A DNA stretch of 24,000 bases from Halorubrum sp. BV1. GTDB taxonomy: Archaea; Halobacteriota; Halobacteria; Halobacteriales; Haloferacaceae. The position numbers were made by a program, and so were the translations under genes. Numbering within the stretch: the first letter of the stretch is position 1; every line of letters starts with the position of its first letter. The DNA is taken from contig NZ_JQKV01000001.1 in the NCBI RefSeq assembly GCF_000746205.1, positions 143,652-167,651 on the forward strand, written 5' to 3'. Under the pieces are notes generated by a model. The model saw only the letters and a list, made by a program, of their open reading frames with translations. It did no database searches and had not been told where the DNA came from. Shown in pieces: positions 6,732-24,000 of this stretch.

Positions 6732-6893
6732 GGTCCAGTTCGAAAGTTCGACCGGCCGGGTATTGAAAGTGCGGGAGTCGTCGCGTCGAGTGAGATACTC
6801 CCTCACGGGGCGATATTTCACCTCAGGCGGCCTCGAGCTGCGCGTACTCTCAATAGTGAAAGGTTTTTGCCCGTTACCGACGGACACGAGCGT

Positions 6894-8950: not shown

Positions 8951-9057
8951 TGCATAGGTAGTCAGTCCAATCCTGTCTCTTTTGGCAGGTGATTTATGAA
9001 TGAGATTCTGTAGAGTACTTGGAGAACGAAACGCCCGAGAACTCAAGCGGAATATAC

Positions 9058-9739
9058 TCACTCCCAGGGTTTGGAGCGGGGCTTTGACGTGACAGATTCG
9101 TCGTCAAGCGCGCGAGTGGGGGCTATAGAGGCGTCCGAGAGTAACTCACAGGTCACGGAATGCCGCGTCAAAATCATCGTCTTCGAACCCGGTAGAGTCA
9201 ACATCTGCCTGTTCTTGGAGTCATCAATTTGTTCCACGAGTCGCCGGTATTCGTCATTCGGCTGGAGGTCTGACTCCGCTATCTCATTTTCAAGGACCGC
9301 CTTCGTCTGAAGCAACCGGTAGAGGTCGTCTACCGTTTCATCATACCGTTCCCGGGTTTGGCATTCGCTCGACCACGTCACGGATCTCGGCTTCCCCAAC
9401 CGGTTTGGTGATGTAGTCATCGAATCCCACCCCGATAACGTCGAAATCAGGTGTCACCGCCGAGACCATCACGACACGCGTTCCCATCTCTTGCTCACGG
9501 ATGCGCTTGAGCACCTCGTCACCAGACAGTCCAGGCATCCGCCGGTCCAAGAGGACAACATCGATCGTAGAATCAAAGATCTCGAGTGCCTCCTCTTCAT
9601 TATATGCGACCTCGACAAGATACTCATCCCGGAGCTATACAGCCATCAGATCGGCGAGGCCCTGATTATCGTCGACAATCAATACCCCTCCTGCGTTGCT
9701 CGATGTATCGTCACTTATCGGATTCCTCCGGGTCTGCAT
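9058..9739 (-). pseudogene. REC-HalX response regulator, disrupted by an in-frame TAG and a 1-nt frameshift
   Basis: My translation from the ATG at 9739 reads MQTRRNPISDDTSSNAGGVLIVDDNQGLADLMAV*LRDEYLVEVAYNEEEALEIFDSTIDVVLLDRRMPGLSGDEVLKRIREQEMGTRVVMVSAVTPDFDVIGVGFDDYITKPVGEAEIRDVVERM. The receiver signature residues are present (DD, LLD, S/T, K-P). The frame then stops at 9341. The HalX-like sequence (RERYDETVDDLYRLLQTKAVLENEIAESDLQPNDEYRRLVEQIDD) continues in another frame, the track ORF 9058..9420. The TAG is at 9635-9637. Confidence 0.75.
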
Positions 9740-12700
9740 CCTGCGTGTCGTCGGCTGTCCTCGACGAGGAATGAGGTTCGTCAGTGAACTCGACACCTGT
9801 GAATTCGAATCGCGCCCCGCCCGTACTACCGGAAGAGACAGTTACTTGCCAACCGTGAGCATCGGCGATCTGTTTCACGATATTCAGACCGAGACCCGTG
9901 CCCTGATCAGTCGTGTATCCCGGCTCGAAAAGCTGACCTCGGTCGCCTTCGGGGATGCCAGGGCCGTCGTCTTCGACGTAGAAGCCACGGTCTGAGTCAA
10001 GGTCTCCGATGGTGACAGCCACGTCCTCACCACCATGTTCGACCGCGTTTCGGAAGAGATTTTCTAGCAACTGTTTGAGCCGGGATCGGTCTGCCTGAAG
10101 TACGCTATCAGTCGTTGTGTGGATCTCGCTGTCGGTTGTTTCCACGTTCTGCCAACACTCATCGCTGAGAGCTTCGAGAGTGACTGCTTCGAAGTCCCCG
10201 ATGGCTTGTCCCGTCCGAAAGAGCGTTAATAAATCCTCGATGAGTGTCTCCATCCGCTCGTGCGCATGCTCGATCGCGTCGAGATGCTCGCTCTCACACT
10301 CTTTTTGAGCCTGCTGTCGCTCCCCTCGTGCAACGTTCAGCGGGTTCTGAAGGTCGTGTGACACGATGCTGGCAAAGTCGAACCGCTCGTTCCGGTGTTT
10401 GAGTTCCCGCACGTACTGTTTGCGTTCGGAAATATCGGGGCTGATTCCGATCATTCCGATAATCTCCCCATCCTCGTCACGGTACGGGTATTTGTTATCG
10501 AGGAAGACGTGCTCCTCGCCATCGATGAACCGGACCGTCTCCGCGGACATCTCCTCGCCAGACTCCATAACCTGCTTATCATCGGCACGAATGTCGGCTG
10601 CGCTTTCAGCGTCGAACAGGTCCTCGTCGTGTTTGCCGATAATCTCTTCGGGCGTATAACCGAACAGCTCAGCGCCGCTTTCATTAATGAACTGATAGTA
10701 GCCCTCTCTATCTTTGATATAGATCGCTTCAGACGTGTTCTGCACGATCGCCTCTAGTTGCCGGGTTTTCTCTGCTAATTTTTCTTCACGTTCGATGCGT
10801 TCGGAGATGTCCCGGAAGATGCCGTACGTGACTGGACCGTCCGGAAGCGGGACCGTCTCGACACTGATCTCGACTGGGACGTGGTCCCCGTTGTCGGTAA
10901 CTATATCGATGGGTGATCCATCGGGAAGTCGTCGCCTGGTTCCCCCCGTTTGAACGTGTTCCTCGAAGAGCTGCTGATAGAGGTCAGCCTGCTCGGAGGG
11001 ATGGAGCTCTGATTGATGCGAGCCGGTGATTTTGTCACTCGCCATCCCGAGCAAGGTTTCGGCAGCGTCGTTGACCTCGATAACTTCGCCCGTCTCGCCA
11101 TCGGCAACGAACACTGGATCCGGAGCCGCCCCAAGCAACGTTTCATACCGCTCTTTCAACTTTGAGAGTTCCTGTTCGCGCTCTTTGTGCTCGGAGATAT
11201 CCCGACAGACAATAAGATGCAAACCTGGGACGATATCATGTGTCACCGTCCACTCGACGATTCGTTCTGAACCATCCGGCCGAACCAACGTTGCAGTCTC
11301 GCGTTGCAGTCCGGAATCTCGATCATCTCTCGGAATATCACGGAACTCAAAACAATCAGTGGTAAATTCGTCGAACGATCGACCTACTACCTTTTCTTTT
11401 GGAAGACCAAAGAGGTTGGCGGTACTTTCATTCGCCCGGAGGGTCTGCCCCTCGTCGTCGACAATCATCAGCGTATCGGCTGTTTCCTCGAAGATACGCT
11501 GGAAGAGGTCTCCAGACTGCTGTCTGATCGGCACTATCTCGTTGGTATCGTCGCTCTCCGTCCCCTCTATGGACTGCGGGAGCGTTATTGTGATCGTCGT
11601 ACCTTCGTCGGAAACAGACGTTTCGATGTCTCCGCCGTGGCCCGTGACGACCCAATAGACCATCCAGAGACCGAGGCCTTCGCCGTGGATCAGCGGCTCT
11701 TCAGTTCCAGTTTCGAGTACCCGATATTCCTGTTCGGGGAGCCCTGGGCCATCGTCGGATATCTCTAATGTGATCGTTCCATGGTCGACTTCAGCGGAGA
11801 CGGTCACCCTGGGGGCGTCTGGGTGCTTGCACGCGTTTTCGATCAACTCGTGGAGCGCCGCTTTGAGGTTCTGATATCCCGATATTGGCACCTCATCTGG
11901 TCCAGTGACTTCTATCGAGGCTGCAGGATACTCGCCTTCGATATCCGCACTCACCTGACGGATCAACGTCATTACGTCGAACGATTGGCGTTCGACATTT
12001 TCCCCCAGGAAGACATCGAGTTCCGTCGCTTTCTCGGCGAGGGATACAATTCTGTCCATGGCGGAGATGACCTCACTTCCATCGATCGAATCGTCGTCGA
12101 GTTGGTCGACTATCATGTCCGTGTAGCCACGGATAACGTTGAACTCGTTGCGAATATTGTGTCGGAAGACTCTCAGCAGGACGGTGTTGAGCTGCTGTTG
12201 ACGGACGAGATTCTGTTCTCGTTTCTTTTGGTCGGTAATGTCGATGACGCCACCTCTGTAGCCCTTGATGGCTCCCTCGTCATCGGTGAGGGCGGTCACG
12301 CTGTCGGACACCCATCGAATCTCTCCATCAGCAGTTCGGACGCGATATTCGAACTGATCGAGTTCGCCGACCGACGTGAGGGTTTCAGAATACGTCGCAT
12401 ACGTGTCTGGATCCACAAATACCTCGTCTTCGATACTGTCTACCGCCGCGCACAGCTCCTCGCCACTCTCGTAGCCGAGCAGATCTGCAAACGCCGGATT
12501 CGCCATGGCATACTCGTCGAGTGTGGCAGTCGTCGTGTAGATGCCTTCGATTGCATTTTCAAAGAGCTGCTGATACTGTTCTTCCAGTTCCGAGGCGAGT
12601 TCCAGCGTGCCCCGGGTGGTTTTTTCCAGTTCTTCTTGCAGGGCTTCCTTTTCCTCAGTCCGTTGTTCCAATTGCATGGCTTCGATTTCGCGGCCGAGGA

Positions 12701-13181
12701 GGCGTGCAACCAGTTCGATGAACAGCTTCTCCTCGGTAGTAAATCCCTCCTCCCGAGGCGTTCGTTGGATAAAACAGACAGTCCCGTAGACCTCTCCACG
12801 CACGAACATCGTGGTTCCGAGATAACAATCGATGTCGTGTTCCTTGTAGGCCGGATCGTTTTGCCATCCCTGCTCTGGGGCATTCGAAATCGCAACGGGC
12901 GAGGGCTCCTGAACCGTATGGCGACAGTAGGTTTTGTCGCGGTCGAGCCTGGTTCCTTCCGGGAGCAGATCGGAATCATTGCCGACGCTGACAAGTATCT
13001 CGTCAGTTGTACTATCGTTGGGATGGCGCTGGATGTGGCCATTTGTGACTCCGAGATACTCTCTGCCTATTGCGAGGACGTGCCGTTGTTTCTCCTCTAA
13101 CGCCAATTCGTCATCATCCATCACCTCGTAGATCCGCTGGGTTGGTGGCGTTTTGTCCGCCGAGCCATTCTTAGTAGTCAT
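9711..13181 (-). CDS. Multidomain sensor histidine kinase with two complete transmitter modules. Order: GAF-like, coiled coil, PAS, HisKA/HATPase_c, three PAS, HisKA/HATPase_c.
   Basis: 1156 aa. GAF-like: TYCRHTV...CYLGTTMFVRGEVYGTVCFIQRTPRE. First H-box: LRVFRHNIRNEFNVIRGY (His341, codon 12159-12161), with N-box HELIENACKH, G1 DDGPGLP and G2 GEGLGLWMV. Three PAS-like segments follow (residues ~555-925). Second H-box: FASIVSHDLQNPLNVA (His942, codon 10356-10358), with ENLFRNAVEHGG, DDGPGIP and GTGLGLNIV. Confidence 0.9.
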   Translation of the reverse strand: MTTKNGSADKTPPTQRIYEVMDDDELALEEKQRHVLAIGREYLGVTNGHIQRHPNDSTTDEILVSVGNDSDLLPEGTRLDRDKTYCRHTVQEPSPVAISNAPEQGWQNDPAYKEHDIDCYLGTTMFVRGEVYGTVCFIQRTPREEGFTTEEKLFIELVARLLGREIEAMQLEQRTEEKEALQEELEKTTRGTLELASELEEQYQQLFENAIEGIYTTTATLDEYAMANPAFADLLGYESGEELCAAVDSIEDEVFVDPDTYATYSETLTSVGELDQFEYRVRTADGEIRWVSDSVTALTDDEGAIKGYRGGVIDITDQKKREQNLVRQQQLNTVLLRVFRHNIRNEFNVIRGYTDMIVDQLDDDSIDGSEVISAMDRIVSLAEKATELDVFLGENVERQSFDVMTLIRQVSADIEGEYPAASIEVTGPDEVPISGYQNLKAALHELIENACKHPDAPRVTVSAEVDHGTITLEISDDGPGLPEQEYRVLETGTEEPLIHGEGLGLWMVYWVVTGHGGDIETSVSDEGTTITITLPQSIEGTESDDTNEIVPIRQQSGDLFQRIFEETADTLMIVDDEGQTLRANESTANLFGLPKEKVVGRSFDEFTTDCFEFRDIPRDDRDSGLQRETATLVRPDGSERIVEWTVTHDIVPGLHLIVCRDISEHKEREQELSKLKERYETLLGAAPDPVFVADGETGEVIEVNDAAETLLGMASDKITGSHQSELHPSEQADLYQQLFEEHVQTGGTRRRLPDGSPIDIVTDNGDHVPVEISVETVPLPDGPVTYGIFRDISERIEREEKLAEKTRQLEAIVQNTSEAIYIKDREGYYQFINESGAELFGYTPEEIIGKHDEDLFDAESAADIRADDKQVMESGEEMSAETVRFIDGEEHVFLDNKYPYRDEDGEIIGMIGISPDISERKQYVRELKHRNERFDFASIVSHDLQNPLNVARGERQQAQKECESEHLDAIEHAHERMETLIEDLLTLFRTGQAIGDFEAVTLEALSDECWQNVETTDSEIHTTTDSVLQADRSRLKQLLENLFRNAVEHGGEDVAVTIGDLDSDRGFYVEDDGPGIPEGDRGQLFEPGYTTDQGTGLGLNIVKQIADAHGWQVTVSSGSTGGARFEFTGVEFTDEPHSSSRTADDTQDADPEESDK
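12222..12629 (-). repeat. Coiled-coil plus PAS cassette, copy A (paralogous to 14409..14816)
   Basis: LEKTTRGTLELASELEEQYQQLFENAIEGIYTTTATLDEYAMANPAFADLLGYESGEELCAAVDSIEDEVFVDPDTYATYSETLTSVGELDQFEYRVRTADGEIRWVSDSVTALTDDEGAIKGYRGGVIDITDQKK aligns without gaps to the kinase-2 segment. Most positions are identical. Confidence 0.85.
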
Positions 13182-13208
13182 CGGTTCAGGTCTCCCAGTA
13201 TGGTTTCG

Positions 13209-14969
13209 TCACCCATTATCCTCAGTGATAAGCAGGGGTGTGCCCCCACTGCCCGTGATTTCGAACCGTGCTCCACCGTCAGCTCCGTCCGTCACGTCAA
13301 TCTCCCACTGATGGGCTTCGACGATCCGCTTGACGATCGCCAGTCCGAATCCTGTTCCGCTCGAATTCGTTGTATATCCCTGCTCAAAGATGTCGTTCCG
13401 CGCCTCCGGCGGGATACCCGGTCCAGTGTCTTCGACGTAAAAGCCATCGTCCAACCGACCGACCGTGACGGTAACCGACTCACCACTGTGTTCGATGGCG
13501 TTCCGGAACAGATTTTCAAAGACTTCGACCAGCCGGCTTCGATCCGCTTCGAGGTGCCCGAGTGATTCAGTCCGGAGGGTGGCATTGGCTCTTGAAATTG
13601 AGTTCCACGCGTCGCGAGCGGTCTCTTCGAGGCGAATTGATTCGGTTTCCCCGACTGCCTTCCCTTGCCGTGAGAGTTCGAGAACATCCTCGATGATGGC
13701 TTCGATCCTATCAAGGGCTGTTTTTGCCGGGTCGAGATTGGTACTGTCACATTCCGCCTCTGCGAGGGCCACGCGTCCGTTTGCCACGTTCAGTGGATTC
13801 CGTATGTCATGAGAGATAATACTCGCAAACTCATCAAGACGGTCGCGTTCCCGGCGGAGCGTCGTTTCAGCCCGAATTTGGTAGAGGGCAGACGTCACAT
13901 GGTTGGCAAGCAAGTTGAGGAGTTCCTCATCATGGTCGTCGAATGCGTCTGGTTCGGTCGCAAACACCTGAATCAGACCTACGTCGTCAAGTGAGACGCC
14001 TAACAGTGCACGAAGATCCTTGCGTGCGTCCTCCCTCAGTCCCGGGGTTGCAGTTTTGGGGGAGTTGGATGAGTTATCTACGTTTACATCTAGTGGTGCC
14101 GTTCCTCGCATCTCGGTTACGTCATCCACGCGAAGAACCTCGTCAGATCGATAGGTTCGCCCGGCAAATCCAGTGTCAACTGGGACCGGATTGTACTGCT
14201 CCAGCGATTCATCACGCGAACTAGCGGTCGGGACAAGGTGATCGACTTCCGCAACGGCAAGATACACACTGGCACCGGGAAAGAGGGCGGCAGCACCGTC
14301 GACTGCACGCTGGTAAATTGCTGCTTCTGTGTCGGCATCAGCGATGTCAGTTGCAATCTCGTGAAGCTGAGTGACCTTGGACATGTGCTCCCGCAGTCGG
14401 TCTATCGCCTCTTTCCGCTCCGTGATGTCGATGACTCCACCTCTGAACCCGCTCATATCCTCCTGACTATCGGAGAGGGCGGTCACGTTATCCGAGACCC
14501 ACCGTATCTCGCCATCAACTGTTTTAACTCGATATTCGAACCGCTCAATCTCGCCCATAGACGATAGTAGCTCTGAACACGTTTCGTATCGGTCGGCGTC
14601 CACAAAGACGTCCTCCGCAATACTATCCACTGCCTCACAGAGTTTTTCACCGCTCTCGTAGCCGAGCAGGTCTGCAAACGCGGGGTTCGCCATGACATAC
14701 TCGTCAAGTGTGTCGGTGGTCGTGTAGATACCCTCTGCCGCCGTCTCGAAGAGCTGTTGGTACTGCTCTTCAAGCTCTGAGGCGAGTTGCAGCGTGCCTT
14801 GCGTCGTTTTCTCCAGTTCCGTGTGCAAGACCTCGTTTTCCTCGCGTAATCGTTCGTTTTCTGTCTGGAGTTCCCGCACTCGGTGGTTGATCGACTCCAG
14901 TGTGGGTTCTACCTCTGGGTCGGCACATGCTTTCGCGTTCTCCAAGAGTTGCTCGATCTGGTCAGTCAT
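13209..14969 (-). CDS. Sensor histidine kinase (coiled coil, PAS, GAF, HisKA, HATPase_c)
   Basis: The preferred start is the ATG at 14969 (MTDQIEQLLENAK...). It overlaps the upstream gene's end by 8 nt (ATGACTGA). The track start at 15002 is an alternative. The PAS is as in the repeat above. GAF-like region: IYQRAVDGAAALFPGASVYLAV...LLGVSLDDVGLIQVFATEPDAFDDHDEELLNLLANHV. H-box: EFASIISHDIRNPLNVA. HATPase_c: ENLFRNAIEHSG, EDTGPGIP, GTGFGLAIV. Confidence 0.9.
   Translation of the reverse strand: MTDQIEQLLENAKACADPEVEPTLESINHRVRELQTENERLREENEVLHTELEKTTQGTLQLASELEEQYQQLFETAAEGIYTTTDTLDEYVMANPAFADLLGYESGEKLCEAVDSIAEDVFVDADRYETCSELLSSMGEIERFEYRVKTVDGEIRWVSDNVTALSDSQEDMSGFRGGVIDITERKEAIDRLREHMSKVTQLHEIATDIADADTEAAIYQRAVDGAAALFPGASVYLAVAEVDHLVPTASSRDESLEQYNPVPVDTGFAGRTYRSDEVLRVDDVTEMRGTAPLDVNVDNSSNSPKTATPGLREDARKDLRALLGVSLDDVGLIQVFATEPDAFDDHDEELLNLLANHVTSALYQIRAETTLRRERDRLDEFASIISHDIRNPLNVANGRVALAEAECDSTNLDPAKTALDRIEAIIEDVLELSRQGKAVGETESIRLEETARDAWNSISRANATLRTESLGHLEADRSRLVEVFENLFRNAIEHSGESVTVTVGRLDDGFYVEDTGPGIPPEARNDIFEQGYTTNSSGTGFGLAIVKRIVEAHQWEIDVTDGADGGARFEITGSGGTPLLITEDNG
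14409..14816 (-). repeat. Coiled-coil plus PAS cassette, copy B (paralogous to 12222..12629)
   Basis: LEKTTQGTLQLASELEEQYQQLFETAAEGIYTTTDTLDEYVMANPAFADLLGYESGEKLCEAVDSIAEDVFVDADRYETCSELLSSMGEIERFEYRVKTVDGEIRWVSDNVTALSDSQEDMSGFRGGVIDITERKE. The similarity is also visible in the DNA (compare 12590-12640 with 14780-14830). Confidence 0.85.
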
Positions 14970-15999
14970 TGGTATCGGTGACGACGAGTGCAGTAGCGTC
15001 ATCCTCCGATTTGCCGTACTGTTTGAGCAACCGGTTCGCTATCGCGCCAGCTGGGTCGTCCCCTCCATCTCGTATGTCGTCCCAGTCCCATCTCGTCGAA
15101 ATACCATCAGAATACAACACCATCGTGAATCCTGGATCCCACTCTCGGGTGACGACAGATGCTCCTGGATTATTGCCCCCCACGACGCCCCGTCGGACGA
15201 TCAGCCCCGTCCATTCCGGGCCAGACAACTTCACATTGATATTTCCTATGTTGGCAAAGGTGAGCGTATGCTCCCTCCAGTCGAACTTCGCGAGTGCCAT
15301 CACGACGCCGCGTGTCCCCTTGCACGCGCGGTCAGCTCCGCGAAAGATTGACGCAAGCGGCCGCTCGACGTGTGACTCGACGTAGCTACGAGCTGTGGTC
15401 GCTGCTTTGTGCGCCCGGGATCCATGCCCGAGGCCGTCGATAACGCCCACCAGCGTCTTGTCATTCCACGTCTTGGCGATGAAGGCGTCACCGTTGACCT
15501 GCTCGGTGGAGATGGCCCGTGATGCAGCCCCAATTGAGGCGGGATTCGGCTTCGTTGTCTCATATTCCGGGATTAGCCACCGATCTGCGACCAGTCGCGT
15601 TCCAGCCTCGGGGCCTTCCGGGGTCGTGACCTCGAGTTCGTCCATCGTTTGATTCACGATGGAGAGGCCGAGCCCGAGCGAGCCAGCGGTCGAAGATCCC
15701 GTCGTGAATGCCGCTTCAATATCTTGGATCCCGGGGCCGGAATCTTCTGATTCAAGCCGAATTCCCGTCTGTGAATCTGCCGCAATTGTTTTGATCGAAA
15801 GTGTTCCGCCCCCGGCGTGTTTATCTAGGTTCGTCGCCAGTTCCGTCGCAACGAGTCCGAGTTCAGAGCTGATATCGTCCTCAAACCCTATCTCGGCTGC
15901 CGTCTGTTCTACCGTATGTTGTGCCCTGGTGGCATCAGCTGACTCGGAAATATCGATGTCGGTTTCAGTAGTAACAACGAGGTCGTCCGGTCTGCTCAT
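14962..15999 (-). CDS. ATP-binding SpoIIE/PP2C-family protein phosphatase: an N-terminal RsbT/RsbW-like HATPase domain fused to an RsbX-like PP2C domain
   Basis: True start is the ATG at 15999 (MSRPDDLVVTTETDIDISES...). The track ORF's 110-aa upstream extension to 16329 overlaps the rsbT-like gene out of frame. N-terminal domain: VATELATNLDKHAGGGTL, SEDSGPGI, TGSSTAGSLGLGLSIV. C-terminal domain: NGDAFIAKTWNDKTLVGVIDGLGHGSRAH...ANIGNINV...VLYSDGIS, the SpoIIE/RsbX-type motifs. Confidence 0.85.
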   Translation of the reverse strand: MSRPDDLVVTTETDIDISESADATRAQHTVEQTAAEIGFEDDISSELGLVATELATNLDKHAGGGTLSIKTIAADSQTGIRLESEDSGPGIQDIEAAFTTGSSTAGSLGLGLSIVNQTMDELEVTTPEGPEAGTRLVADRWLIPEYETTKPNPASIGAASRAISTEQVNGDAFIAKTWNDKTLVGVIDGLGHGSRAHKAATTARSYVESHVERPLASIFRGADRACKGTRGVVMALAKFDWREHTLTFANIGNINVKLSGPEWTGLIVRRGVVGGNNPGASVVTREWDPGFTMVLYSDGISTRWDWDDIRDGGDDPAGAIANRLLKQYGKSEDDATALVVTDTND

Positions 16000-16018
16000 C
16001 GTGATCGGCTCCGTCCTG

Positions 16019-16423
16019 TCATGAGTGCCACTTTGTGATCGTGATTGTCGTGCCCTCTCCTTGTTCCGTGTCGATCTCCATGTCGTCCATGAGCGTCTGT
16101 GTTCCGGACAGCCCACGGCCCAACCCATCCGACGTCGAAAATTCCCCCTCAAGCGCTGCGTCGGGATCGTCGATGCCTGGCCCCTGATCCTCGAAGATGA
16201 CCGTGAGACCGGTTCGATCGTCGTCGGTGATATGCTTCCATTCCATCGTTCCCTCACCGGCGTAAAGGTGGATGTTCCGGGCGAGTTCCGAGACAGCCGT
16301 GACGATCCGCGTGATATCCGTGGTGTCAAACCCGACTTGCTCAGCGGCGTCTCGGGCTTGTTGACGGGTCTGGAGCACGTCAGTTTCGGACTGGATCTCT
16401 ACTCGACCGGAGCCCTCGCTCAT
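16019..16423 (-). CDS. rsbT: RsbT-like anti-sigma-regulatory-factor-type serine/threonine protein kinase (HATPase_c_2)
   Basis: MSEGSGRVEIQSETDVLQTRQQARDAAEQVGFDTTDITRIVTAVSELARNIHLYAGEGTMEW...IFEDQGPGIDDPDAALEGEFSTSDGLGRGLSGTQTLMDDMEIDTEQGEGTTITITKW. This closely follows my memory of B. subtilis RsbT (ISELARNIYLYAG, DQGPGI, GFSTSGGLGAGLPG, LMDEF, GEGT.I...KW). Its ATG at 16423 overlaps the upstream stop as ATGA. Confidence 0.85.
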   Translation of the reverse strand: MSEGSGRVEIQSETDVLQTRQQARDAAEQVGFDTTDITRIVTAVSELARNIHLYAGEGTMEWKHITDDDRTGLTVIFEDQGPGIDDPDAALEGEFSTSDGLGRGLSGTQTLMDDMEIDTEQGEGTTITITKWHS

Positions 16424-16788
16424 GAGGGATCCCAACTTACTCCCAACATTTCGAGTGCATGATCGGTCGACCGGGCAGTCTCAACTGCATCCAACCGGTA
16501 TCCGAGTTCTGCAGCGGTCACAGCGACTTCCGGGCGGATCCCGGCAATCACTGTCGTCCCGCCCATGAGTTCGATCATCTGAGCCGTCTCCGAGATATGC
16601 CGGGCGAAAAACGAATCCATCAGTTGCACGTTGGACACGTCGAGGATGACGCCCTCAGGCTGGCTGGTTTCCATTTCTGCCAAGATCGCCTCTTGTAACT
16701 CGTCGACCACCGGGTCAGTCGGGTTGTTGGGAAACGTCCCCAACAGGATATCGTAGATTCGAACGACATTCGCGCTACCAGCCGACAT
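16420..16788 (-). CDS. rsbS: RsbS-like single-STAS-domain stressosome scaffold protein
   Basis: 122 aa: VVRIYDILLGTFPNNPTDPVVDELQEAILAEMETSQPEGVILDVSNVQLMDSFFARHISETAQMIELMGGTTVIAGIRPEVAVTAAELG. It parallels B. subtilis RsbS as I recall it (VIDLTSVDMIDSFIAK...[26 protein letters not shown]). The phospho-acceptor-equivalent Ser is at residue 59 (codon 16612-16614). Confidence 0.85.
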   Translation of the reverse strand: MSAGSANVVRIYDILLGTFPNNPTDPVVDELQEAILAEMETSQPEGVILDVSNVQLMDSFFARHISETAQMIELMGGTTVIAGIRPEVAVTAAELGYRLDAVETARSTDHALEMLGVSWDPS

Positions 16789-17567
16789 CAGTCGAACGAT
16801 ACCCCCGCAATATCGAGCGCGGTTTTGAGGCCTTCCTGAAGCGACGATTGTGTTTCCACGTCGAATCCAATTCCGAGCTGCACGAGTGTCTGGGAGATCT
16901 CTGGATTGAGTCCCGTGATGATTGTCTGACCGCCCATCAGTTTGACGGCGTGGATCGTATCGATAAGATGTTGGGCGGTCTGGGTGTCAACCGCCTCCGC
17001 ACCGGTAATATCGATGATCGCGACAGTGGCTTCCGTTTCTGAAATCCGTTCCAGGAGCTTCTCAGTGAAATCTTGGGCCTGTGCCGAGTCGAGTTTCCCG
17101 ATGATCGTCGAGAGCAAAATCCCGTCCCAGACCTCGACGATTGGCACTGATCGCTTGGCGAGTTCATCGGCCAACGACTCTTGAATCTCTCGTTGCCGAT
17201 TGCGCTCGGTGATGTTCCGACCGATACTGGCGATCGCTTTGAGACTTTCATCCTCGTCTTCAACGGGAGTCCACTGGAACTCGTACGGGAGCCGCTCTCC
17301 CGTCTTCGTTTCGAGAACAGTCCCAAGCGTGACGGCCGTCCGATCATTGGTGATAGTCTTTATAGCCGTGCGCACGTCCCCGCGCTCTCCCTCGGGGACG
17401 AGATCGGCGGGGTTGAGGTCCCCAATCTCGTTGTTGTCGTATCCTGTGACGCTTGTGAATCGAGCGTTCCACTCCACGTACTCGCCGCCGGGAGTGAATA
17501 CGTAGAACAGGTCATCAAGCGAATTGACAGCGTCTGCGAGTAACCCAGGATCCGAAGAATTGATCAT
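16788..17567 (-). CDS. rsbR: RsbR-like stressosome sensor protein (N-terminal PAS domain plus C-terminal STAS domain)
   Basis: The ATG at 17567 gives MINSSDPGLLADAVNSLDDLFYVFTPGGEYVEWNARFTSVTGY... (PAS). The STAS half is SVPIVEVWDGILLSTIIGKLDSAQAQDFTEKLLERISETEATVAIIDITGAEAVDTQTAQHLIDTIHAVKLMGGQTIITGLNPEISQTLVQLGIGF. That is RsbR-like, including the VDT and SQT threonines. Its stop overlaps the rsbS-like ATG by 1 nt (TGATG at 16786-16790). Confidence 0.85.
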   Translation of the reverse strand: MINSSDPGLLADAVNSLDDLFYVFTPGGEYVEWNARFTSVTGYDNNEIGDLNPADLVPEGERGDVRTAIKTITNDRTAVTLGTVLETKTGERLPYEFQWTPVEDEDESLKAIASIGRNITERNRQREIQESLADELAKRSVPIVEVWDGILLSTIIGKLDSAQAQDFTEKLLERISETEATVAIIDITGAEAVDTQTAQHLIDTIHAVKLMGGQTIITGLNPEISQTLVQLGIGFDVETQSSLQEGLKTALDIAGVSFD

Positions 17568-17670
17568 GGATACCAATTTATCCCCCTGGTTGATATAACC
17601 TCACGCTACTTATTTGGTATTAATTTAATCCATCACTAAATACATAACCTTCCGTTGAGAGCGATTATCT
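17568..17670. promoter_or_regulatory. Divergent AT-rich promoter region between the rsbR-like operon and the Bat-type regulator gene
   Basis: 103 bp. On the minus strand, TTATATCA (complement of 17591-17598) lies ~25-30 nt upstream of the ATG at 17567. On the plus strand, taaataca (about 17637-17644) lies ~27-30 nt upstream of the ATG at 17671. There is also an inverted repeat: ataccaa (17570-17576) and ttggtat (17614-17620). Confidence 0.45.
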
Positions 17671-19308
17671 ATGGCCGATACTGATCCCGGGGATAGGACA
17701 GAGCACAAATCCCTGTATAAAACTGCGGTAGAGCAGTCACCCGATGGGATATTTGCCTTGACGAACGATTTGGAACTGGCGTTAGTGAATAGACGGATTG
17801 AATCATTAGCCGGTGTTGAACGAGAGGAGTTGGTCGGGAGCCACGCGTCGGTTTTCCGCGAAATTGGGCTCGTAGATGGAGCCAATTACGACCGGGCAAT
17901 TGCCGCATGTAGAACGGTACTGGATGGTGACGCTGATTCGGAGCAATTTGAAATTCAACTCACGCCACAATCCGAACCGATCACCGCTGAGTATCGGGTT
18001 GAACGAGTGTCCCGCGAGGAGGAAAACGCGCTCTTGATTGGAGTGCTCCGGGACATCACCCCCCGGATCGAGCAACAAAAACAGATCAAACGCCAACGAA
18101 ACGAGCTCAAAACGGTTAGTCAGATCCAGTCATTACTCCACAATATAATGAAATCACTCCCGTCAAGCACGACGAGAGCGGAAATTAATCAAGTTGTGTG
18201 TAATCAGCTCATTCAATCAAGCTTCTATGATGCTGCATGGATGGGATACAAAGGGCCTCAAGAAGAAGGAGTCAGAGGCATCTATACCGCAGGGGTGGAG
18301 CCTGGTCTCCAAGAGTTCATCACGACTCGTGAGATGGGCCGGGACGGAGCGTCAATTCTGAGCGAGGCGTTCGATACTGAACACATCCAAGTGATCAGTA
18401 GTCCGGCGACGGATCCGAGACTTCCCGATCAATTTCGAGATCAGCTTGTCCGCTATGGATATGAATCAGCGATTCTCGTCCCGCTCACAATCGATCATAT
18501 GTCGTTTGGAGTATTAATGGCCGCAACCCATCGAAAGAATGCGTTCATCAGTCGGGAACGGATGGCGTTCGAAGCGTTAGGAGGTGTCGTTGAATTTGCG
18601 GTGAATGCCGTCGAGAACGTCCAATTACTGCAGGGGGCGAAAATGGTCGAACTCAGATTCCAGATACAGACGGGTGCGATCGCTGCAGACATCTCTGATA
18701 CGTTCGATTGTGAGTGCTATCTTAATGGCATCTCACCCGCCCCTAACGACAACCTACGATGTTTTGTCTCCGTTGAGGATGCACCCACGGATGAGGTAGC
18801 TGTCTTTGCGGAACAACAAGCGGCGGTTCGAAGCGTCGAGGTGATCGACGAGTGGGAGTCGGGTGGGACGTTCGAGATCGTCTTGGGAACGTCCCCGTTG
18901 CAACCGCTCATTGACTCCGGGGTTTACATCGAGGGAGCTTCAGCGTCAGACGGAACCGCACACATATCAGTTCGTATCGGTGCAGATAGAGATCCGGTTG
19001 AGATCCTCGACAGGGTAGAATCGGTCTATCCGGAAATCGAACTCGTGAGCAAACAATTGGTAGAGGATACACGTCACCCCGTCTTTGAACTCAGTGGATG
19101 GGTAGGCGAACATCTCACGAGCAAACAACGTCAGGCGTTGGAGGAGGCGTACTTTCGGGGCTATTTCGAGTGGCCCCGCGAGAACACTGCAGAGGAGATC
19201 GCTGAAGCCCTAGGCGTCTCGTCCGCTACGTTTCACGCCCATCATCGCAAGGCGACTCAGAAACTCCTCTCAGCGGTGTTTGAAAAGAGCACAGAGCGGG
19301 AGATGTAG
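17671..19308 (+). CDS. Bat-type (bacterio-opsin-activator-like) transcription regulator: PAS, GAF, BAT domain, HTH_10
   Basis: 545 aa. PAS: YKTAVEQSPDGIFALTNDLELALVNRRIESLAGVEREELVGSH...IGVLRDITPR. GAF-like: VCNQLIQSSFYDAAWMGY...ESAILVPLTIDHMSFGVLMAATHRKNAF. C-terminal HTH_10 signature: LTSKQRQALEEAYFRGYFEWPRENTAEEIAEALGVSSATFHAHHRKATQKLL. Confidence 0.85.
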   Translation: MADTDPGDRTEHKSLYKTAVEQSPDGIFALTNDLELALVNRRIESLAGVEREELVGSHASVFREIGLVDGANYDRAIAACRTVLDGDADSEQFEIQLTPQSEPITAEYRVERVSREEENALLIGVLRDITPRIEQQKQIKRQRNELKTVSQIQSLLHNIMKSLPSSTTRAEINQVVCNQLIQSSFYDAAWMGYKGPQEEGVRGIYTAGVEPGLQEFITTREMGRDGASILSEAFDTEHIQVISSPATDPRLPDQFRDQLVRYGYESAILVPLTIDHMSFGVLMAATHRKNAFISRERMAFEALGGVVEFAVNAVENVQLLQGAKMVELRFQIQTGAIAADISDTFDCECYLNGISPAPNDNLRCFVSVEDAPTDEVAVFAEQQAAVRSVEVIDEWESGGTFEIVLGTSPLQPLIDSGVYIEGASASDGTAHISVRIGADRDPVEILDRVESVYPEIELVSKQLVEDTRHPVFELSGWVGEHLTSKQRQALEEAYFRGYFEWPRENTAEEIAEALGVSSATFHAHHRKATQKLLSAVFEKSTEREM

Positions 19309-19532
19309 GTTATCGACAGGGCGAAGACGGGAACCTGTCCGGATGCCCCCGACGGGCGATCTATTGGAAAACGCCCCATACGGGGTGACAGAGCCAGCAG
19401 ATCCCGGATGTTCTTGAGGCAAACACAATTTCACTACCACTGGTGCCACCGACACAGGCTTCACGATGAGCCGTCTTCCGGACAATTGCGACAACCACCT
19501 ATAGCGATTGCCCTGTCTACGACTCGACGCCG

Positions 19533-21104
19533 TTGTACGATCGGAGTTCACTCGCTGGCCTCGAAGAAGACATCCGAACCGTTGCGGCCACCTGGTTTGA
19601 CCACGAGGCCCACGACTCTGTCACCGAATTCGTCGCTCACTACCCGTTGACGTATGTCGAATTTCGCCCCGACGACCGGTATTCGAGAGCAACGCGATAC
19701 GAGATGGCGCAGCTGCTCCGCGCGTTCCTGCTCAAAGAAATTCACGGCTGGACCCACGAGACGGCACTCGCCACGTACCTCACCCAACGCCCAAAACTCC
19801 GTGAGCAACTGTGTCTGGAGATGGTCCCAGACCAATCGACGCTCTGGCGCAGCTGGCACGAGCGGTTCACCACTGACCTCCGGAAGTCAGTCGAGACGGT
19901 GGCTCGAATGATCCTCATCAAAGCTCAGGATGCGGGTGTCGCGGTTCCGCGTGAACCGGCACGAAAGCTCCAGCATCACGATGGCAAGTCTGGTGAGTCA
20001 GAATCAGACGATCAAACCACGTTGGAGCAGGCAGCGAAGCTCACCGACCACGTCAGCCGTATCGTCTTCCCGGCGTTTTCGCTGGATCGTGGGGACGGCT
20101 GTGAGATACATGAGAACGCCTACTGGGGATTACAGACGTATCTCGGACTTCGCGAGCAGCTGGCTGCGAACGAAGGAGCTCGCAGTTTCGTCTACGAATC
20201 GACTCGGGATCGGACACCGCTGGGGCACGCCCATCGCGACCACATCCGCGACCTCTCTATCGAGCAGATTCGCGAGATGTACCGACAGGCGATCCGGCAC
20301 CTCATCGGCGAGGTCGCAGAGACAGAGCAGTTCTTCCAGGCGGGTATTGTCGCCATCGACATCACTGAGGCCGATCCCTTCACCGGCAATAGAACGGGCT
20401 ACGAGGACGAGATCATCGGGACGAAAGAACAGACCGACGAGTACGCGTACCAGTGGGCGACAGTCCAGCTGGTCGGCAACGCCGTCCCGCTCGTCCTTGA
20501 TGCCCGCCCGGTACGGAAAGGCGAGAGTCGGAAGGACATCGTTGAGGACTTGCTGGATTCGGCTGAAGAGCTCGTCCACGTCGATAACGTGCTGATGGAC
20601 CGGGAGTTCGATAGCCAGCACGTCCTAGAGATGATCAGCCAGCGCGGGCTTTCCTACGTCGTTCCGAAGCGGATGCAGACCAGCGAAAAAGCTCAGGCAA
20701 AGCGGTTGCTCCAGCGCGATCAAGACCGATACGAGACCGACCGTAAACTCCATCTGGGGAAGAACGAGTGGCACGAGACGACGCTGATCTACCGCCGGAA
20801 AGAAGACTCTGAGCACGACGACCATCGACAGTACTCGGTGTTCATGTCAAACCGAGGTGGTAGCTTCCTCACTGAGTATAGGTATCGGTGGGAGATTGAG
20901 AGCGGCTATAGGTCGATCAAGCGGTTCATGGCCGCGACGACGTCTACGGATTTCGGACTGCGATTCTTCTACTTCGCGTTCGCGTGCCTCTTATACTCAA
21001 TCTGGCGAGCGATCGATCTACTCGTGCAGGCCGAGTTGACTGGAGAATACGAACGGTCACCGATGCTGACTGCAGATAATACACTCACGCTGTTGAAGAA
21101 ATAG
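19533..21104 (+). CDS. IS4-superfamily (haloarchaeal ISH-type) DDE transposase
   Basis: 523 aa. Candidate DDE residues lie in GIVAIDITE, VLMDREFDS and YRYRWEIESGYRSIKRF. The last fits the IS4 Y-(2)-R-(3)-E-(6)-K signature exactly. The track start is a TTG, so the true start is uncertain. Confidence 0.85.
   Translation: MYDRSSLAGLEEDIRTVAATWFDHEAHDSVTEFVAHYPLTYVEFRPDDRYSRATRYEMAQLLRAFLLKEIHGWTHETALATYLTQRPKLREQLCLEMVPDQSTLWRSWHERFTTDLRKSVETVARMILIKAQDAGVAVPREPARKLQHHDGKSGESESDDQTTLEQAAKLTDHVSRIVFPAFSLDRGDGCEIHENAYWGLQTYLGLREQLAANEGARSFVYESTRDRTPLGHAHRDHIRDLSIEQIREMYRQAIRHLIGEVAETEQFFQAGIVAIDITEADPFTGNRTGYEDEIIGTKEQTDEYAYQWATVQLVGNAVPLVLDARPVRKGESRKDIVEDLLDSAEELVHVDNVLMDREFDSQHVLEMISQRGLSYVVPKRMQTSEKAQAKRLLQRDQDRYETDRKLHLGKNEWHETTLIYRRKEDSEHDDHRQYSVFMSNRGGSFLTEYRYRWEIESGYRSIKRFMAATTSTDFGLRFFYFAFACLLYSIWRAIDLLVQAELTGEYERSPMLTADNTLTLLKK
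19533..21104 (+). mobile_element. Insertion sequence. Only the transposase ORF is delimited; the terminal inverted repeats are not resolved.
   Basis: An intact transposase ORF is flanked by non-coding AT-richer sequence (19309-19532 and 21105-21410). I could not identify convincing terminal IRs or target-site duplications by eye. Confidence 0.6.
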
Positions 21105-21410
21105 GCAGGAATCGGGTAGTAGACTGCTCTATCCGTGATAGAGCGTCGTCTAAGTGGCAACGCTACCGAAAGTTTCGAAAAAACCGCCCACATAGTAGGA
21201 AATCCAACAAGAATGGCCGTTTGGAGAGCGATCTGAAGCAGATTCCACTCATCAATTCAGTCGGAACCACGCATCATAGCCCCGCTAAACCCGCTATAGT
21301 CTCAACTTCCAAGTATCAAAAGTTAATATCGCGAAATACGGTTTATTTGATCCGGGCTGACCAGAATTCTGACCACCCAGCCAGTCGAAATTCGTCGGTA
21401 CGTCCCGAGT

Positions 21411-22445
21411 TCACTCGAGTAGCGAATACATATTTCTCTCGTACGTCTCGCGAACTTGGTTCCCCCAATCGTGCGTGTACGTGTCGATTATGTCGTCGGC
21501 GACGTCACCGCGGAGGTACTTGACCACTCCCCGGTCGCCGGTTCGGTCCCGGAGGTGCGTGGTGAAGAAGTGTCGAAAGTAGTGTGGAGTGACGTTTTCA
21601 GTGGCCCCGCCGCCGGTTCGATACCACCCGGCATCTCGGGCGTATCGTTCGACGATGTGCCGCACCGCCTGGGGGTCGAGTCGCGACCCCCATCCCTCTG
21701 CGGTGCCGACAAAGAGCGGATCGGCCGACGAGGGGCAGTCCGGTCGGATCGCGAGCCACGCTTTGAGAACTCGCGCCAACTCGTCGTCAACGGGGATCAC
21801 GGTACTGCGCTTACGCTTGTTCGATGCCGAGCGGACCTCGTCGTTCAACGTTTCGCCAACGGTCGCATCAGGCGTCACGTACACCGAATTCGGCCGACCG
21901 GCGAGTACCGGTCTGGTTCCGAGATCGTACGCCTCGTTCAGCTCGTCGTCGTCGATCGCGACGTCGCGGAGATCGAGGTTACAGCACTCACCGACCCGCA
22001 TCCCGGTCTTCAAGAGCGTCACGACGAGAGCGCGGTGAAGCGGATGGGTGATGCCGGAGACGAACGTTCGCATCGCGGGAATCGAAATGTCCCGGCGGGC
22101 CGGGTCCGTGTCGATCGTTTCGTCCATCTCTTCGACGACAAGCGTCATCGGATTGCCGTCGAACGCGCCGACCTCGGTCATATACCCGTAGAATCGGTGC
22201 AGATACGCCGCGTACGTCGCTACCGTGCTGTCGGCGAGTTCACCTCGGAGCGAGTGAATGAACGCCATACAGTCGCGGTGCGTGGCCGTCTCGGGGGTGG
22301 ACGTCTCGTCGAGAAACGCCTCGAACTGCCGGAGCACGCGCTCGTACGACTCGCGCGTCCTCGACGTCTTCCCGTGATAGGTCAGATCTTCGATGAAATA
22401 CTCAACCGGATCGTCGATATCGGCGGGGGCACGCGTGCTACTCAT
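21411..22445 (-). CDS. Tyrosine recombinase / phage-type integrase (XerC/D-like)
   Basis: 344 aa. N-terminal SAM-like core-binding region: YFIEDLTYHGKTSRTRESYERVLRQFEAFL. Catalytic region: LLKTGMRVGECCNLDLRDV (Arg I), TPHYFRHFFTTHL (HxxR), GVVKYLRGDVADDIIDTYTH (candidate nucleophile Tyr). Confidence 0.9.
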   Translation of the reverse strand: MSSTRAPADIDDPVEYFIEDLTYHGKTSRTRESYERVLRQFEAFLDETSTPETATHRDCMAFIHSLRGELADSTVATYAAYLHRFYGYMTEVGAFDGNPMTLVVEEMDETIDTDPARRDISIPAMRTFVSGITHPLHRALVVTLLKTGMRVGECCNLDLRDVAIDDDELNEAYDLGTRPVLAGRPNSVYVTPDATVGETLNDEVRSASNKRKRSTVIPVDDELARVLKAWLAIRPDCPSSADPLFVGTAEGWGSRLDPQAVRHIVERYARDAGWYRTGGGATENVTPHYFRHFFTTHLRDRTGDRGVVKYLRGDVADDIIDTYTHDWGNQVRETYERNMYSLLE

Positions 22446-22815
22446 CGACGAGCGCGTATCCCCCTCGCCGGCCGTTGTATTTGATGCGGTTCCGATCCTG
22501 CAACTCGTCGAGTGCGTCCTCTAAGCGATCTTCGAAGTCGCCGCGCAGCGCGTCGACGAGTTCGTCCCACGACTGCGGTCCGTCAGCAAGAACCCGTTCC
22601 ACCTCTGTTTCGAGGTCGTGACTCCCGGGGGTTTCGTCCGTGGAAGCGGTCTCCTCGGTGCTCGACGGTTCCGAGAGAGAAAATCCACGTCTCCCGGCCT
22701 GTACCATCGTTCTGACGAACTCGCTTTGCGACATGTCCAGCTCGTTCGCGTGAGTCTGCCACCGATCTTTCTGCTCGGCGGGCACGTACGTTTTCACTGA
22801 ACGGCGATCACTCAT
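22438..22815 (-). CDS. Small DNA-binding protein (ribbon-helix-helix-like N-terminus, winged-helix-like C-terminus), co-transcribed with the integrase
   Basis: The ATG at 22815 gives MSDRRSVKTYVPAEQKDRWQTHANELDMSQSEFVRTMVQAG (CopG/RHH-like). An acidic linker follows, then WDELVDALRGDFEDRLEDALDELQDRNRIKYNGRRGGYALV. An 8-nt overlap (ATGAGTAG) joins it to the integrase start. Confidence 0.65.
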   Translation of the reverse strand: MSDRRSVKTYVPAEQKDRWQTHANELDMSQSEFVRTMVQAGRRGFSLSEPSSTEETASTDETPGSHDLETEVERVLADGPQSWDELVDALRGDFEDRLEDALDELQDRNRIKYNGRRGGYALVDE

Positions 22816-22848
22816 CTCGATGTACCGTTTTGCGGCCGGTACCTTCAA

Positions 22849-23020
22849 TTTACCCCATAATTCAGGATAAGTGACTTTATCTGTGGTTGTAGTACCTTCT
22901 AGATGACGGGGATAACTAGTTATATTGAATTATAGAACTATAAGCGCAGCAAACTGTTCCTAGATTATAGGATATATTACTGCTGCAAAATACTATGTCA
23001 TATGTTTGTATGTTTGTCAG
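22849..23020. promoter_or_regulatory. Very AT-rich non-coding region upstream of the RHH-integrase pair, with a palindrome and a tandem repeat
   Basis: Perfect 12-bp palindrome ataactagttat (22912-22923). Tandem atgtttgt atgtttgt (23002-23017). The motif attatag occurs twice (about 22928 and 22963). On the minus strand, a TAAATT-like element lies ~35 nt upstream of the ATG at 22815. Confidence 0.4.
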
Positions 23021-23708
23021 CCGGAGCCAGCGTGACCGGAGATGGTCGCCGGACGGCGTGTCTCCACAGACAGCCCGATCGCTGGCGCGAATGAATCGTG
23101 CGTCGCACTGGAAAGTACGACAACTCGCTTGTGGGACTCAAGATGCGCTCGATCGATGTGAGCGTCGCGCATCGCTGTCTCTCTCCGTCTTCAAAATAAT
23201 CTGAATGATCCGACATATTATTGGTTAATAGATATGTGTTCTGCAACCTCGACGTACTCATCTGAGCGTGCTGTGTAGGGTGGCTGTCCGGGAAACGGGC
23301 GGTAGAAGGACAACGAGAAACGCTCTCGCTGGTGTCTGTCTCACTACCCGTATCGTTCTATTTCTGACCGTATACGCCGTTGTTCGGCTTATTTCGATGG
23401 CGACAGATACACGCACGATCAGTCAGCGTGGCGGATCTTCTAAGTGATTCTACTCGCCTAGACTGTCGGTTCGTCTCGTGATCAGAGCCAATTCATCCGA
23501 CGAATTGGAAACCAGAACAATATCTGAAAACGAGAGGTCGGAGATTGAGTGACGAGTGAAGATCTACTAACCGCGATACAAGGCGACCGTTCGGGTGTGT
23601 CCAGATCGCGTTGGGCCTGTTCGCGTCTGGGTCTTTTTTACACCGCTGTTTCGGTCGCTGCTCACACAGCACTATTTGTGGCACACACGCCAAGTATATT
23701 GTATAGTG

Positions 23709-23998
23709 CTATACAAACGAACCTGGCCTTGATGAATCGTTCGAGCCGCTTTCGACCGTCTCGCGGAGATCTCGCATGAAGCGCTCGTTTCAGCTGCGCC
23801 ACAGTCTCGATTGATCGGGCACCGTCCCCAACTCTAAGCGCTTACAGAGTGTGGAGTGGCTACCGAGGTACTCGAGAAGTGCTGTTTCGTGTTCCCGCCC
23901 GTGGATTCCTCGTCCTCTGTACCGAGTCGCTGGTTGAACAGGGCGGTCGCTCGTTCGTACCCGCTGTATCCGTCGAACCGCTCTGTGTCGTCGGTCAT
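23709..23998 (-). pseudogene. Degraded N-terminal fragment of a second ISH-type transposase, homologous to the 19533..21104 copy
   Basis: My minus-strand translation reads MTDDTERFDGYSGYERATALFNQRL.... It then shifts frame to ...GIHGREHETALLEYLGSHSTLCKRLELGTVPDQSRLWRS*NERFMRDLRETVESG. Compare the intact copy: FRPDDRYSRATRYEMAQLL...EIHGWTHETALATYLTQRPKLREQLCLEMVPDQSTLWRSWHERFTTDLRKSVETV. An in-frame TGA (23790-23792) replaces the conserved Trp codon. Homology is lost after about residue 130 of the intact protein. Confidence 0.6.
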
Positions 23999-24000
23999 CG

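Follow-up and report, generated by a model that had tools for sequence, protein, structure and literature searches.

This account concerns a 24,000-nucleotide (nt) stretch of the genome of the haloarchaeon Halorubrum sp. BV1, here called the window, in which four consecutive open reading frames (ORFs) on the minus strand are genes of the rsbR-rsbS-rsbT-rsbX type, with products termed here R, S, T and X. A first-pass annotation of the same DNA had seen in them a complete stressosome-type module, and while the identity of all four protein families holds up, the degree of novelty claimed does not. The four ORFs lie where that annotation had put them (259, 122, 134 and 345 amino acids (aa)) and their close coupling reads as it described: the R stop and S start overlap in TGATG at 16786-16790, S and T share ATGA at 16420-16423, and a 19-nt spacer, with a GGAG-like element inside, precedes the X ATG at 15999. 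The Pfam domains it expected, PAS plus STAS, STAS, HATPase_c_2 and SpoIIE, were found (E-values of 1e-9 to 1e-16), with an extra HATPase_c_2 domain in X. The gene order is R-S-T-X as it had said, but the unit is longer than the four genes, the coupled downstream kinases having been missed. At the junction ATGACTGA the ATG at 14969 of a first histidine kinase gene, HK1, overlaps the X stop codon (8 nt), and seven co-directional genes, R-S-T-X-HK1-HK2-regulator, follow each other with gaps of at most 27 nt. The operon extends beyond the four genes to two histidine kinases and then a decayed REC-HalX regulator. For comparison, haloarchaeal loci were gathered singly, eight beyond the window and so nine in total from about nine genera, and genome contigs were scanned with a haloarchaeal RsbT alignment, which gave at least 80 loci, bacterial among the matches listed.

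R (16788-17567, minus strand; Pfam PAS_4 2.7e-12, STAS 8.7e-16) is an RsbR-like co-antagonist and putative sensor, with a PAS domain at residues 7-118 (17214-17549), a 19-residue linker helix at residues 120-138 (17154-17210) in its AlphaFold2 (AF2) model and a STAS domain at residues 143-253 (16809-17141). The model (predicted local distance difference test (pLDDT) 82.9) has the architecture PAS-helix-STAS; its best full-length fold match is YtvA (2MWG, 1.7e-16), a LOV-STAS protein of the Bacillus subtilis stressosome, with RsbR and RsbS as further fold matches, and its STAS part superposes on B. subtilis RsbS with a template-modelling (TM) score of 0.90 and a root-mean-square deviation (rmsd) of 1.5 Å. 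In sequence, the best matches in the PDB are RsbR of Vibrio vulnificus (7o0i, from an electron cryomicroscopy (cryo-EM) stressosome; 4e-24) and Listeria RsbR, with STAS scores of 88.6 and ~73-75 bits; both of these proteins form cryo-EM stressosomes. S (16420-16788, minus strand; its start codon within the TGATG already mentioned) is the RsbS-like single-STAS scaffold or antagonist, and is best matched by RsbS of B. subtilis (6jhk, 1.7e-15) and Listeria (4.6e-15) with SpoIIAA at E 0.5; against Bacillales RsbS it scores 65-69 bits, and against the RsbV of the same operons at most 16 bits. In the PDB sequence search R and S together reach E-values of 0.03-0.5 against SpoIIAA and 0.3-1 against SulP STAS domains. 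The first-pass annotation had allowed that its two STAS proteins might prove to be of the SpoIIAA, RsbV or SulP kind; judged by these alignments they group instead with RsbR and RsbS.

The acceptor residues of the known phosphorylation cycle have evident counterparts. S59 of S, in the MDSF context and with its codon at 16612-16614 as first noticed, corresponds to B. subtilis S59 and Listeria S56, the chain of the Listeria S56A mutant aligning at the column. R had been credited with threonines in VDT and SQT contexts. The former is correct: T195 (codon 16983-16985) aligns with Listeria T209 and B. subtilis T205. The latter, T227, is conserved yet matches no known phosphosite, and the true T171 equivalent is S161, in the context LDS (codon 17085-17087), which corresponds to T175 of Listeria RsbR1 and T171 of B. 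subtilis RsbRA with an offset of +14 relative to 7b0u_A (Listeria numbering from PMC8942246). The 34 residues between S161 and T195 equal the T171-T205 spacing of RsbRA. Position 161 is S or T in 9/9 haloarchaeal homologues, D194 and T195 are invariant in 50 homologues, and the DSFFAR of S is invariant in all nine haloarchaeal proteins, so that the three predicted phospho-acceptor equivalents, S59, S161 and T195, are conserved in haloarchaeal homologues. S also has the lowest ratio of nonsynonymous to synonymous substitution rates (Ka/Ks) in the operon, 0.075-0.084.

The PAS domain of R has a LOV-like fold. The flavin motif of YtvA is NCRFLQ, within GxNCRFLQ. R reads NPADLV there, P53 aligning with YtvA C62, and its score with the NCBIfam model YtvA_fam is 90.1 bits against a cutoff of 250; blue-light sensing by a LOV-type, flavin-binding PAS domain was considered and rejected on both counts, in keeping with the initial description of a PAS sensor that lacks the LOV NCRFL.

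T (16019-16423, minus strand; HATPase_c_2 1.3e-14; ATGA overlap with S) is an RsbT-like serine/threonine kinase. Three Bacillales sigB operons among the loci of the bacterial scan (L041, L053 and L077, with the order R-S-T-U-V-W-sigB-X) served as controls: T is 45-46% identical to their RsbT (108-114 bits) and scores 22-30 bits against their RsbW. A neighbour-joining (NJ) tree of HATPase_c_2 domains has T inside the RsbT clade, the N-terminal domain of X (X_N) as a sister clade and RsbW as outgroup. The residues of the N, G1 and G2 boxes, E46, N50, D79, G81, G83, G102 and G104, are invariant. In the PDB the best sequence match is SpoIIAB, no RsbT chain being among the matches. The first-pass annotation had conceded that a kinase outside the RsbT group would weaken its case, and by sequence T groups with RsbT and not with RsbW or SpoIIAB.

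X (14962-15999, minus strand; Pfam HATPase_c_2 3e-11, SpoIIE 4.5e-9) had been taken for an RsbX-like SpoIIE/PP2C phosphatase, which is right for its C-terminal part, but a second HATPase_c_2 domain had gone unnoticed. X is a fusion of the RsbT-like ATP-binding domain X_N (residues 8-141, 15577-15978; Pfam HATPase_c_2 span, residues 21-129) with a PP2C domain of the RsbX/MtX type (residues 154-342, 14974-15540; Pfam SpoIIE). Its AF2 model has pLDDT 88.9 and a predicted TM score (pTM) of 0.87. The PP2C domain matches MtX (3zt9, 2.4e-16) and RsbX (3w40, 4e-13) in sequence and MtX in fold (3ZT9; TM 0.89, rmsd 1.9 Å), and scores 53-65 bits against Bacillales RsbX versus 34-36 bits against RsbU; the X_N model aligns with SpoIIAB at TM 0.71-0.74. 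From these comparisons the PP2C domain can be assigned to RsbX/MtX and not RsbU, and the fused N-domain departs from the canonical single-domain RsbX. Across 103 homologues the ATP-box residues of X_N (E53, N57, D86, G88, G90, G109 and G111) and the PPM metal motifs (G170-D171, D188-G-x-G-H-G193, D298-G299 and D333-D334) are invariant or nearly so, and since both sets are conserved X is probably an ATP-binding protein as well as an active phosphatase. Relatives number 680 at E <= 1e-10, under NCBI names such as 'ATP-binding protein' or 'ATP-binding SpoIIE family protein phosphatase'. X is fused in 7/9 haloarchaeal loci. In Halodesulfurarchaeum and on the Halanaeroarchaeum plasmid it has lost X_N and is a single PP2C domain of 214-219 aa, and the kinases there keep the helix motif now to be described.

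HK1 (13209-14969, minus strand; 586 aa) consists of a coiled-coil helix motif followed by PAS, GAF, HisKA and HATPase domains (Pfam). HK2 (9711-13181, minus strand; 1156 aa), which starts 27 nt after HK1, has by Pfam and motif scan a GAF domain, the helix motif (12588-12632), PAS, an internal HATPase (residues 435-533), three PAS, HisKA and HATPase; it resembles two kinases joined. The helix motif of HK1, ELEKTTQGTLQLASE at residues 51-65 (14775-14819, minus strand), is a candidate docking or regulatory site for stressosome output; it reads LHTELEKTTQGTLQLASELEE in the window, the consensus being ELEETNxG(V/L)xALxxEL. The motif and first PAS domain form a block that is near-identical in HK1 and HK2, ELEKTT(Q/R)GTL...GGVIDIT, and the two are therefore paralogous outputs; in Halopenitus and Halanaeroarchaeum the kinase directly after X is of the HK2 type and has a similar N-terminus.

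A strict regular expression for the motif finds it in the kinase after X in 9/9 haloarchaeal loci and, among the bacterial loci listed, in 27 of the 41 with a fused X versus one of 17 with a single-domain X. Elsewhere in 1611 ORFs (313,000 residues), other kinases flanking haloarchaeal modules included, there is none; in two loci the next kinase of the operon has it too. These counts are lower bounds, as the expression misses variants (e.g. QLEDTNRG in L058 and L063), and several of the motif-negative fused-X loci have a variant motif or lie on a contig that ends early. In minimal Pseudomonas kinases (~290 aa, without a sensor domain) the H-box follows ~12 residues after the motif; in haloarchaeal kinases PAS, or PAS plus GAF, is inserted between the two. 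No Pfam family covers the motif. RsbU_N was tried as the kinase docking domain and rejected, the kinase N-termini being unmatched by a model that gives the Bacillales RsbU control 1.5e-27. In several bacteria (L043, L058, L059, L063, L066, L067, L071, L074 and L078) an RsbT-clade domain, a third HATPase_c_2 in or beside that clade, is fused N-terminally to a motif-bearing kinase of 450-850 aa with the motif at about residue 175-410, so that modules with such a fusion hold up to three RsbT-like domains. Fusions of this 'Rosetta-stone' kind support the view that RsbT and the kinase are directly linked in function, and the helix is a candidate docking site for stressosome output.

The last member of the unit is damaged in this strain. 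Directly after HK2 comes a REC-HalX response-regulator pseudogene (9058-9706, minus strand): a stop codon interrupts REC in frame (DLMAV*LRDE; Y or W in homologues), and the reading frame shifts ahead of the HalX ORF at 9058-9420. A tblastn search with intact REC-HalX regulators of L087 gave 49-50% identity with '*' inside REC, and Pfam gives HalX 4.5e-12. The lesions reflect either true decay to a pseudogene or sequencing error.

The contig and its host are archaeal, and R, T and X are 100% identical to NCBI proteins of Halorubrum sp. BV1. The first-pass annotation had pointed to RadB, PGF-CTERM, HalX and BAT/HTH_10 as hallmarks; all were matched on the same contig (RadB at 410 bits, cutoff 278; PGF-CTERM in a subtilase) and DUF5805 is a further one. 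Equally sound was its remark on strong acidity, the isoelectric point (pI) being 4.1-4.8 for every module protein across the haloarchaeal loci. Upstream of R a 103-nt intergenic stretch (17568-17670, read from the sequence) leads to a divergent Bat-like regulator (PAS-GAF-BAT-HTH_10; 17671-19308, plus strand), and a TATA-like TTATAT at 17593-17598, ~28 nt before the R start codon, is so placed as would fit a leaderless archaeal transcript of R. The Bat-like regulator was considered as a conserved output and rejected, since it adjoins the module in none of the eight other haloarchaeal loci; in Halorientalis (L086) a short BAT/HTH_10 gene lies ~2 kb downstream of the module. A domain search of the window proteins gave no sigma factor, RsbV or RsbW, and a Bacillus-type sigma-B cascade (RsbU with RsbU_N, RsbV, RsbW and sigma factor) was not found within the window. 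Farther away, at 5592-7577, long ORFs overlap on opposite strands with Pfam matches on both: the minus-strand ORF (5592-7019) has four CBS domains, and the plus-strand ORF (5694-7577) has a HAD hydrolase match confined to its C-terminal third, the start of the HAD gene probably lying much later than the listed ORF start at 5694.

How widely is this arrangement shared? The first-pass annotation had proposed looking for the four-gene neighbourhood in other haloarchaea, and the eight further loci have it: Halorhabdus utahensis, Halodesulfurarchaeum sp. HSR-GB, Halovenus marina, Halopenitus sp. H-Gu1, a 35-kb Halanaeroarchaeum plasmid, Halorientalis brevis, a hypersaline metagenome contig and a 187-kb Halobaculum halophilum plasmid with response regulators after the kinase. 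The order R(PAS-STAS)-S-T-X-HK is kept in 9/9 loci, two of them on plasmids, and Halonotius and two Haloarculaceae isolates appear in the homologue lists as well. Halodesulfurarchaeum sp. HSR-GB has two module copies on different contigs (the entries L082, L085, P0011/P0015 and P0171/P0188 cover HSR-GB and the Halanaeroarchaeum plasmid). In comparison with the two closest relatives, Halopenitus and the metagenomic one, the five genes of the window have Ka/Ks of 0.075-0.21; the module proteins are under purifying selection.

In Haloarculaceae the G+C content (GC) of the module equals that of its flanks (~0.64), and in Halorubrum BV1, Halopenitus, Halobaculum, Halanaeroarchaeum and Halodesulfurarchaeum the module has a low-GC setting (0.52-0.57) on plasmids or islands. 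GC in the window falls from 0.67 to 0.55 at ~9 kb, and the low-GC block, ~9000-24000, contains the whole module. Beyond the Bat-like gene, domain search identifies an IS4/DDE transposase (19533-21104), a XerA-like tyrosine recombinase/integrase (21411-22445) and a DUF5805 protein (22438-22848). No tRNA gene that could have been an integration site is present in the window, and the block probably represents a mobile island that has integrated here and extends rightwards past the window.

Among the bacterial loci listed, the gene after T is a HATPase_c_2-PP2C fusion (~335-375 aa) in 41 of 80, with hosts that include Pseudomonas, Stenotrophomonas, Methylobacterium, Streptomyces, Microcoleus, Acidobacteria and Ca. 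Anammoxibacter. In the NJ tree haloarchaeal T and X_N are each monophyletic and nested in one bacterial subgroup, which among these loci comprises L002, L003, L009, L011, L032, L055 and L060. These are also the closest bacterial loci in sequence, with T 46-51% and PP2C 42-48% identical, and S, the R STAS domain and PP2C reach their highest identities there too. The nesting of T and X_N in the same subgroup, taken with those identities, suggests that the module came over whole: haloarchaea probably gained it from bacteria in a single block, after which it spread among them. Judged by eye, R of L003, L011, L032 and L060 appears to have a protoglobin- or globin-coupled-sensor-like N-terminus in place of PAS, and R of L009 (Bryobacteraceae), similar in size, appears to be PAS-type; a swap of sensor domains seems to have taken place, with the STAS core, ~50% identical, retained.

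Among known systems the likenesses are partial and instructive. The MtR-MtS-MtT-MtX module of Moorella thermoacetica (2VY9, 3ZT9) shares the RSTX order and a non-sigma output, and MtX, as given above, is the best match to the X PP2C domain in both sequence and fold, but it is without an N-terminal kinase-like domain. In Moorella a diguanylate cyclase forms the output, and MtR has a globin-like sensor. With the stressosomes of B. subtilis and Listeria (6JHK, 6QCM, 7B0U) the common ground is the phospho-acceptor sites and the identity of RsbT to T noted earlier, and the PAS-helix-STAS architecture of YtvA, which is that of R. Unlike those systems the haloarchaeal module has no RsbU, RsbV, RsbW or sigma-B and has X directly after T, and unlike YtvA haloarchaeal R has no LOV flavin cysteine. 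Closest in layout are bacterial R-S-T-[HATPase_c_2-PP2C]-HK modules, such as those of Ca. Anammoxibacter L003, Bryobacteraceae L009, Methylococcales L032, Pseudomonas L014 and L076, and Stenotrophomonas L057, with the same five-gene architecture, fused X and ELEETNxG helix at the kinase N-terminus; they differ in their bacterial hosts, non-acidic proteins and an R that is often protoglobin-like or multi-PAS. The V. vulnificus rsbRSTX (7O0I; PMC9237108) also has R-S-T-X order without a sigma-B cascade and two-component genes directly downstream without RsbU_N; its RsbR STAS domain is the best PDB match to R (4e-24), and a Ser likewise occupies the T171-equivalent position. It differs in sensing through a haem globin, not PAS, in its bacterial host and in an RsbX described as having a PP2C domain alone.

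RSTX modules with downstream two-component outputs lacking RsbU_N were set out by Heinz et al. 2022 (PMC9237108), and the mark of that class, kinase or regulator genes within a few bases of rsbX, is seen here (8-nt overlap; nine loci). The module is a haloarchaeal, well-conserved instance of this known RSTX-plus-two-component class. Nor is archaeal occurrence itself new: published papers mention rsbRSTX in 'some archaeal species', Guerreiro et al. 2022, citing Pane-Farre 2005, have stressosome genes in 'both bacteria and archaea' (PMC8942246), and Joint Genome Institute labels on haloarchaeal homologues include RsbT and RsbR. Full-text literature searches brought up no experimental work on an archaeal stressosome. 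With archaeal occurrence already mentioned and the layout common in bacteria, the novelty claimed in the first-pass annotation has to be cut back. The same kind of search found no description of the fused RsbX, for which an earlier description in the 2005 survey is possible, and none of the helix motif. What is new here is the conserved helix motif in the kinases just after X.

Putting these strands together, we consider it likely that this is a functional RsbR-RsbS-RsbT-RsbX stressosome-type module of the RSTX-plus-two-component-output class, acquired from bacteria as a block and adapted to high salt. Through their STAS domains R and S would build a large common core that holds RsbT. A signal other than blue light acting through flavin would be received by the YtvA-like PAS 'turret' of R, whereupon RsbT would phosphorylate S59 of S and S161 and T195 of R and then be released. 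Freed RsbT would act on the co-transcribed HK1 and HK2 by way of the N-terminal helix motif, and in intact loci the kinases would signal to REC-HalX regulators. To our knowledge archaea have no sigma factor, and it is for that reason that a kinase to REC-HalX output is proposed. The PP2C domain of X would reset R~P and S~P, and X_N may either dock X on the STAS core or add a second kinase activity. In support of the kinase step, the motif is tied to gene position after X.

Several considerations pull the other way. We infer a megadalton R:S complex in multimolar salt because the STAS domains are homologous to those of cage-forming proteins; RsbT capture and release and the coupling of RsbT to the kinases are predicted steps. 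Direct docking of RsbT on a kinase would be the first such case in any system, and V. vulnificus RsbT gave no detectable binding to its downstream two-component protein (PMC9237108). With its terminal REC-HalX regulator broken as a pseudogene, the pathway may be truncated in BV1. The module lies in a low-GC island beside an insertion sequence (IS) element and an integrase and is therefore accessory; X_N is dispensable, since two haloarchaeal lineages are without it; and the NJ tree of HATPase_c_2 domains has no bootstrap support.

Might genuine RsbR, RsbS, RsbT and RsbX homologues have no cage and be a small soluble partner-switching set, of dimers or tetramers, in which R and S titrate T? The AF2 monomer of R (pTM 0.49) is uninformative on oligomers, and strongly acidic surfaces (pI 4.1-4.3) in high salt could alter STAS packing. 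Yet the R STAS domain aligns well with the cage-forming RsbR of V. vulnificus and Listeria, at the bit scores given above, and the fold is nearly identical; a long and a short STAS gene paired in the order R-S-T are what marks out cage-forming systems; and S, at Ka/Ks 0.08, is the most constrained protein, as expected of a scaffold. A cage-free set is thus, in our estimate, unlikely. The mobile setting, with IS transposase and XerA-like integrase, related module copies on plasmids, and a terminal REC-HalX with both stop codon and frameshift, could also betoken an island passenger that is functionally decaying in BV1 and no longer an active pathway. That is quite improbable given that all six genes, R, S, T, X, HK1 and HK2, are intact, that Ka/Ks is 0.08-0.21 against Halopenitus and the metagenomic relative, and that catalytic and acceptor residues are retained; moreover the regulator lesions may stem from sequencing errors, and the kinases could work with other response regulators.

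A different proposal concerns the nature of the output, in which RsbT or X_N might phosphorylate T55 of the HK1 helix motif and PP2C reverse this, X then acting on kinase and STAS core alike. A central threonine in nearly every example of the motif, the ATP-binding residues of X_N kept across 103 homologues and the co-occurrence of X_N with the motif (27/41 versus 1/17, among the loci listed) are in sympathy with it. The strict expression demanded threonine, however, so that its conservation is partly circular; variants in L006 and L007 have Q at the position, and in Halodesulfurarchaeum and Halanaeroarchaeum the motif is kept without X_N. Such a Ser/Thr output we hold to be doubtful, though worth keeping in mind. 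Hardly any credence attaches to the contig being bacterial (e.g. Salinibacter-like) or the STAS proteins being anti-anti-sigma factors of the RsbV/SpoIIAA type, in spite of NCBI names such as 'anti-sigma regulatory factor' and 'STAS domain-containing protein' and of closest non-haloarchaeal relatives that are bacterial among the matches listed. RadB, PGF-CTERM, HalX, BAT/HTH_10 and DUF5805 share the contig, which disposes of the bacterial origin that the first-pass annotation had itself thought to check; SpoIIAA/RsbV matches are negligible, and the window has no gene for a sigma factor, RsbV or RsbW.

The functional RSTX module with a two-component output can be taken a stage further, though only as speculation in which we place limited trust. 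The ELEETNxGxxALxxEL helix, which kinases after rsbX share from Pseudomonas to haloarchaea, may be the receiver for stressosome output that does not go through sigma-B, being bound or Thr-phosphorylated by RsbT or X_N, and in haloarchaea a bacterial-type megadalton hub may thereby be coupled to archaeal transcription via HalX; this would be the first stressosome at work in the multimolar-salt cytoplasm of an archaeon.

How non-Bacillales stressosomes transfer their signal downstream is an acknowledged open question, and the helix motif and the kinase-phosphatase fusion are concrete, mutable targets for it in bacteria and archaea alike. The position on plasmids and in low-GC islands documents bacteria-to-archaea transfer of a whole multi-protein signalling system. 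A haloarchaeal stressosome would reveal whether a STAS cage can form and signal at multimolar salt, and by what route a hub of this kind reaches transcription without sigma factors.

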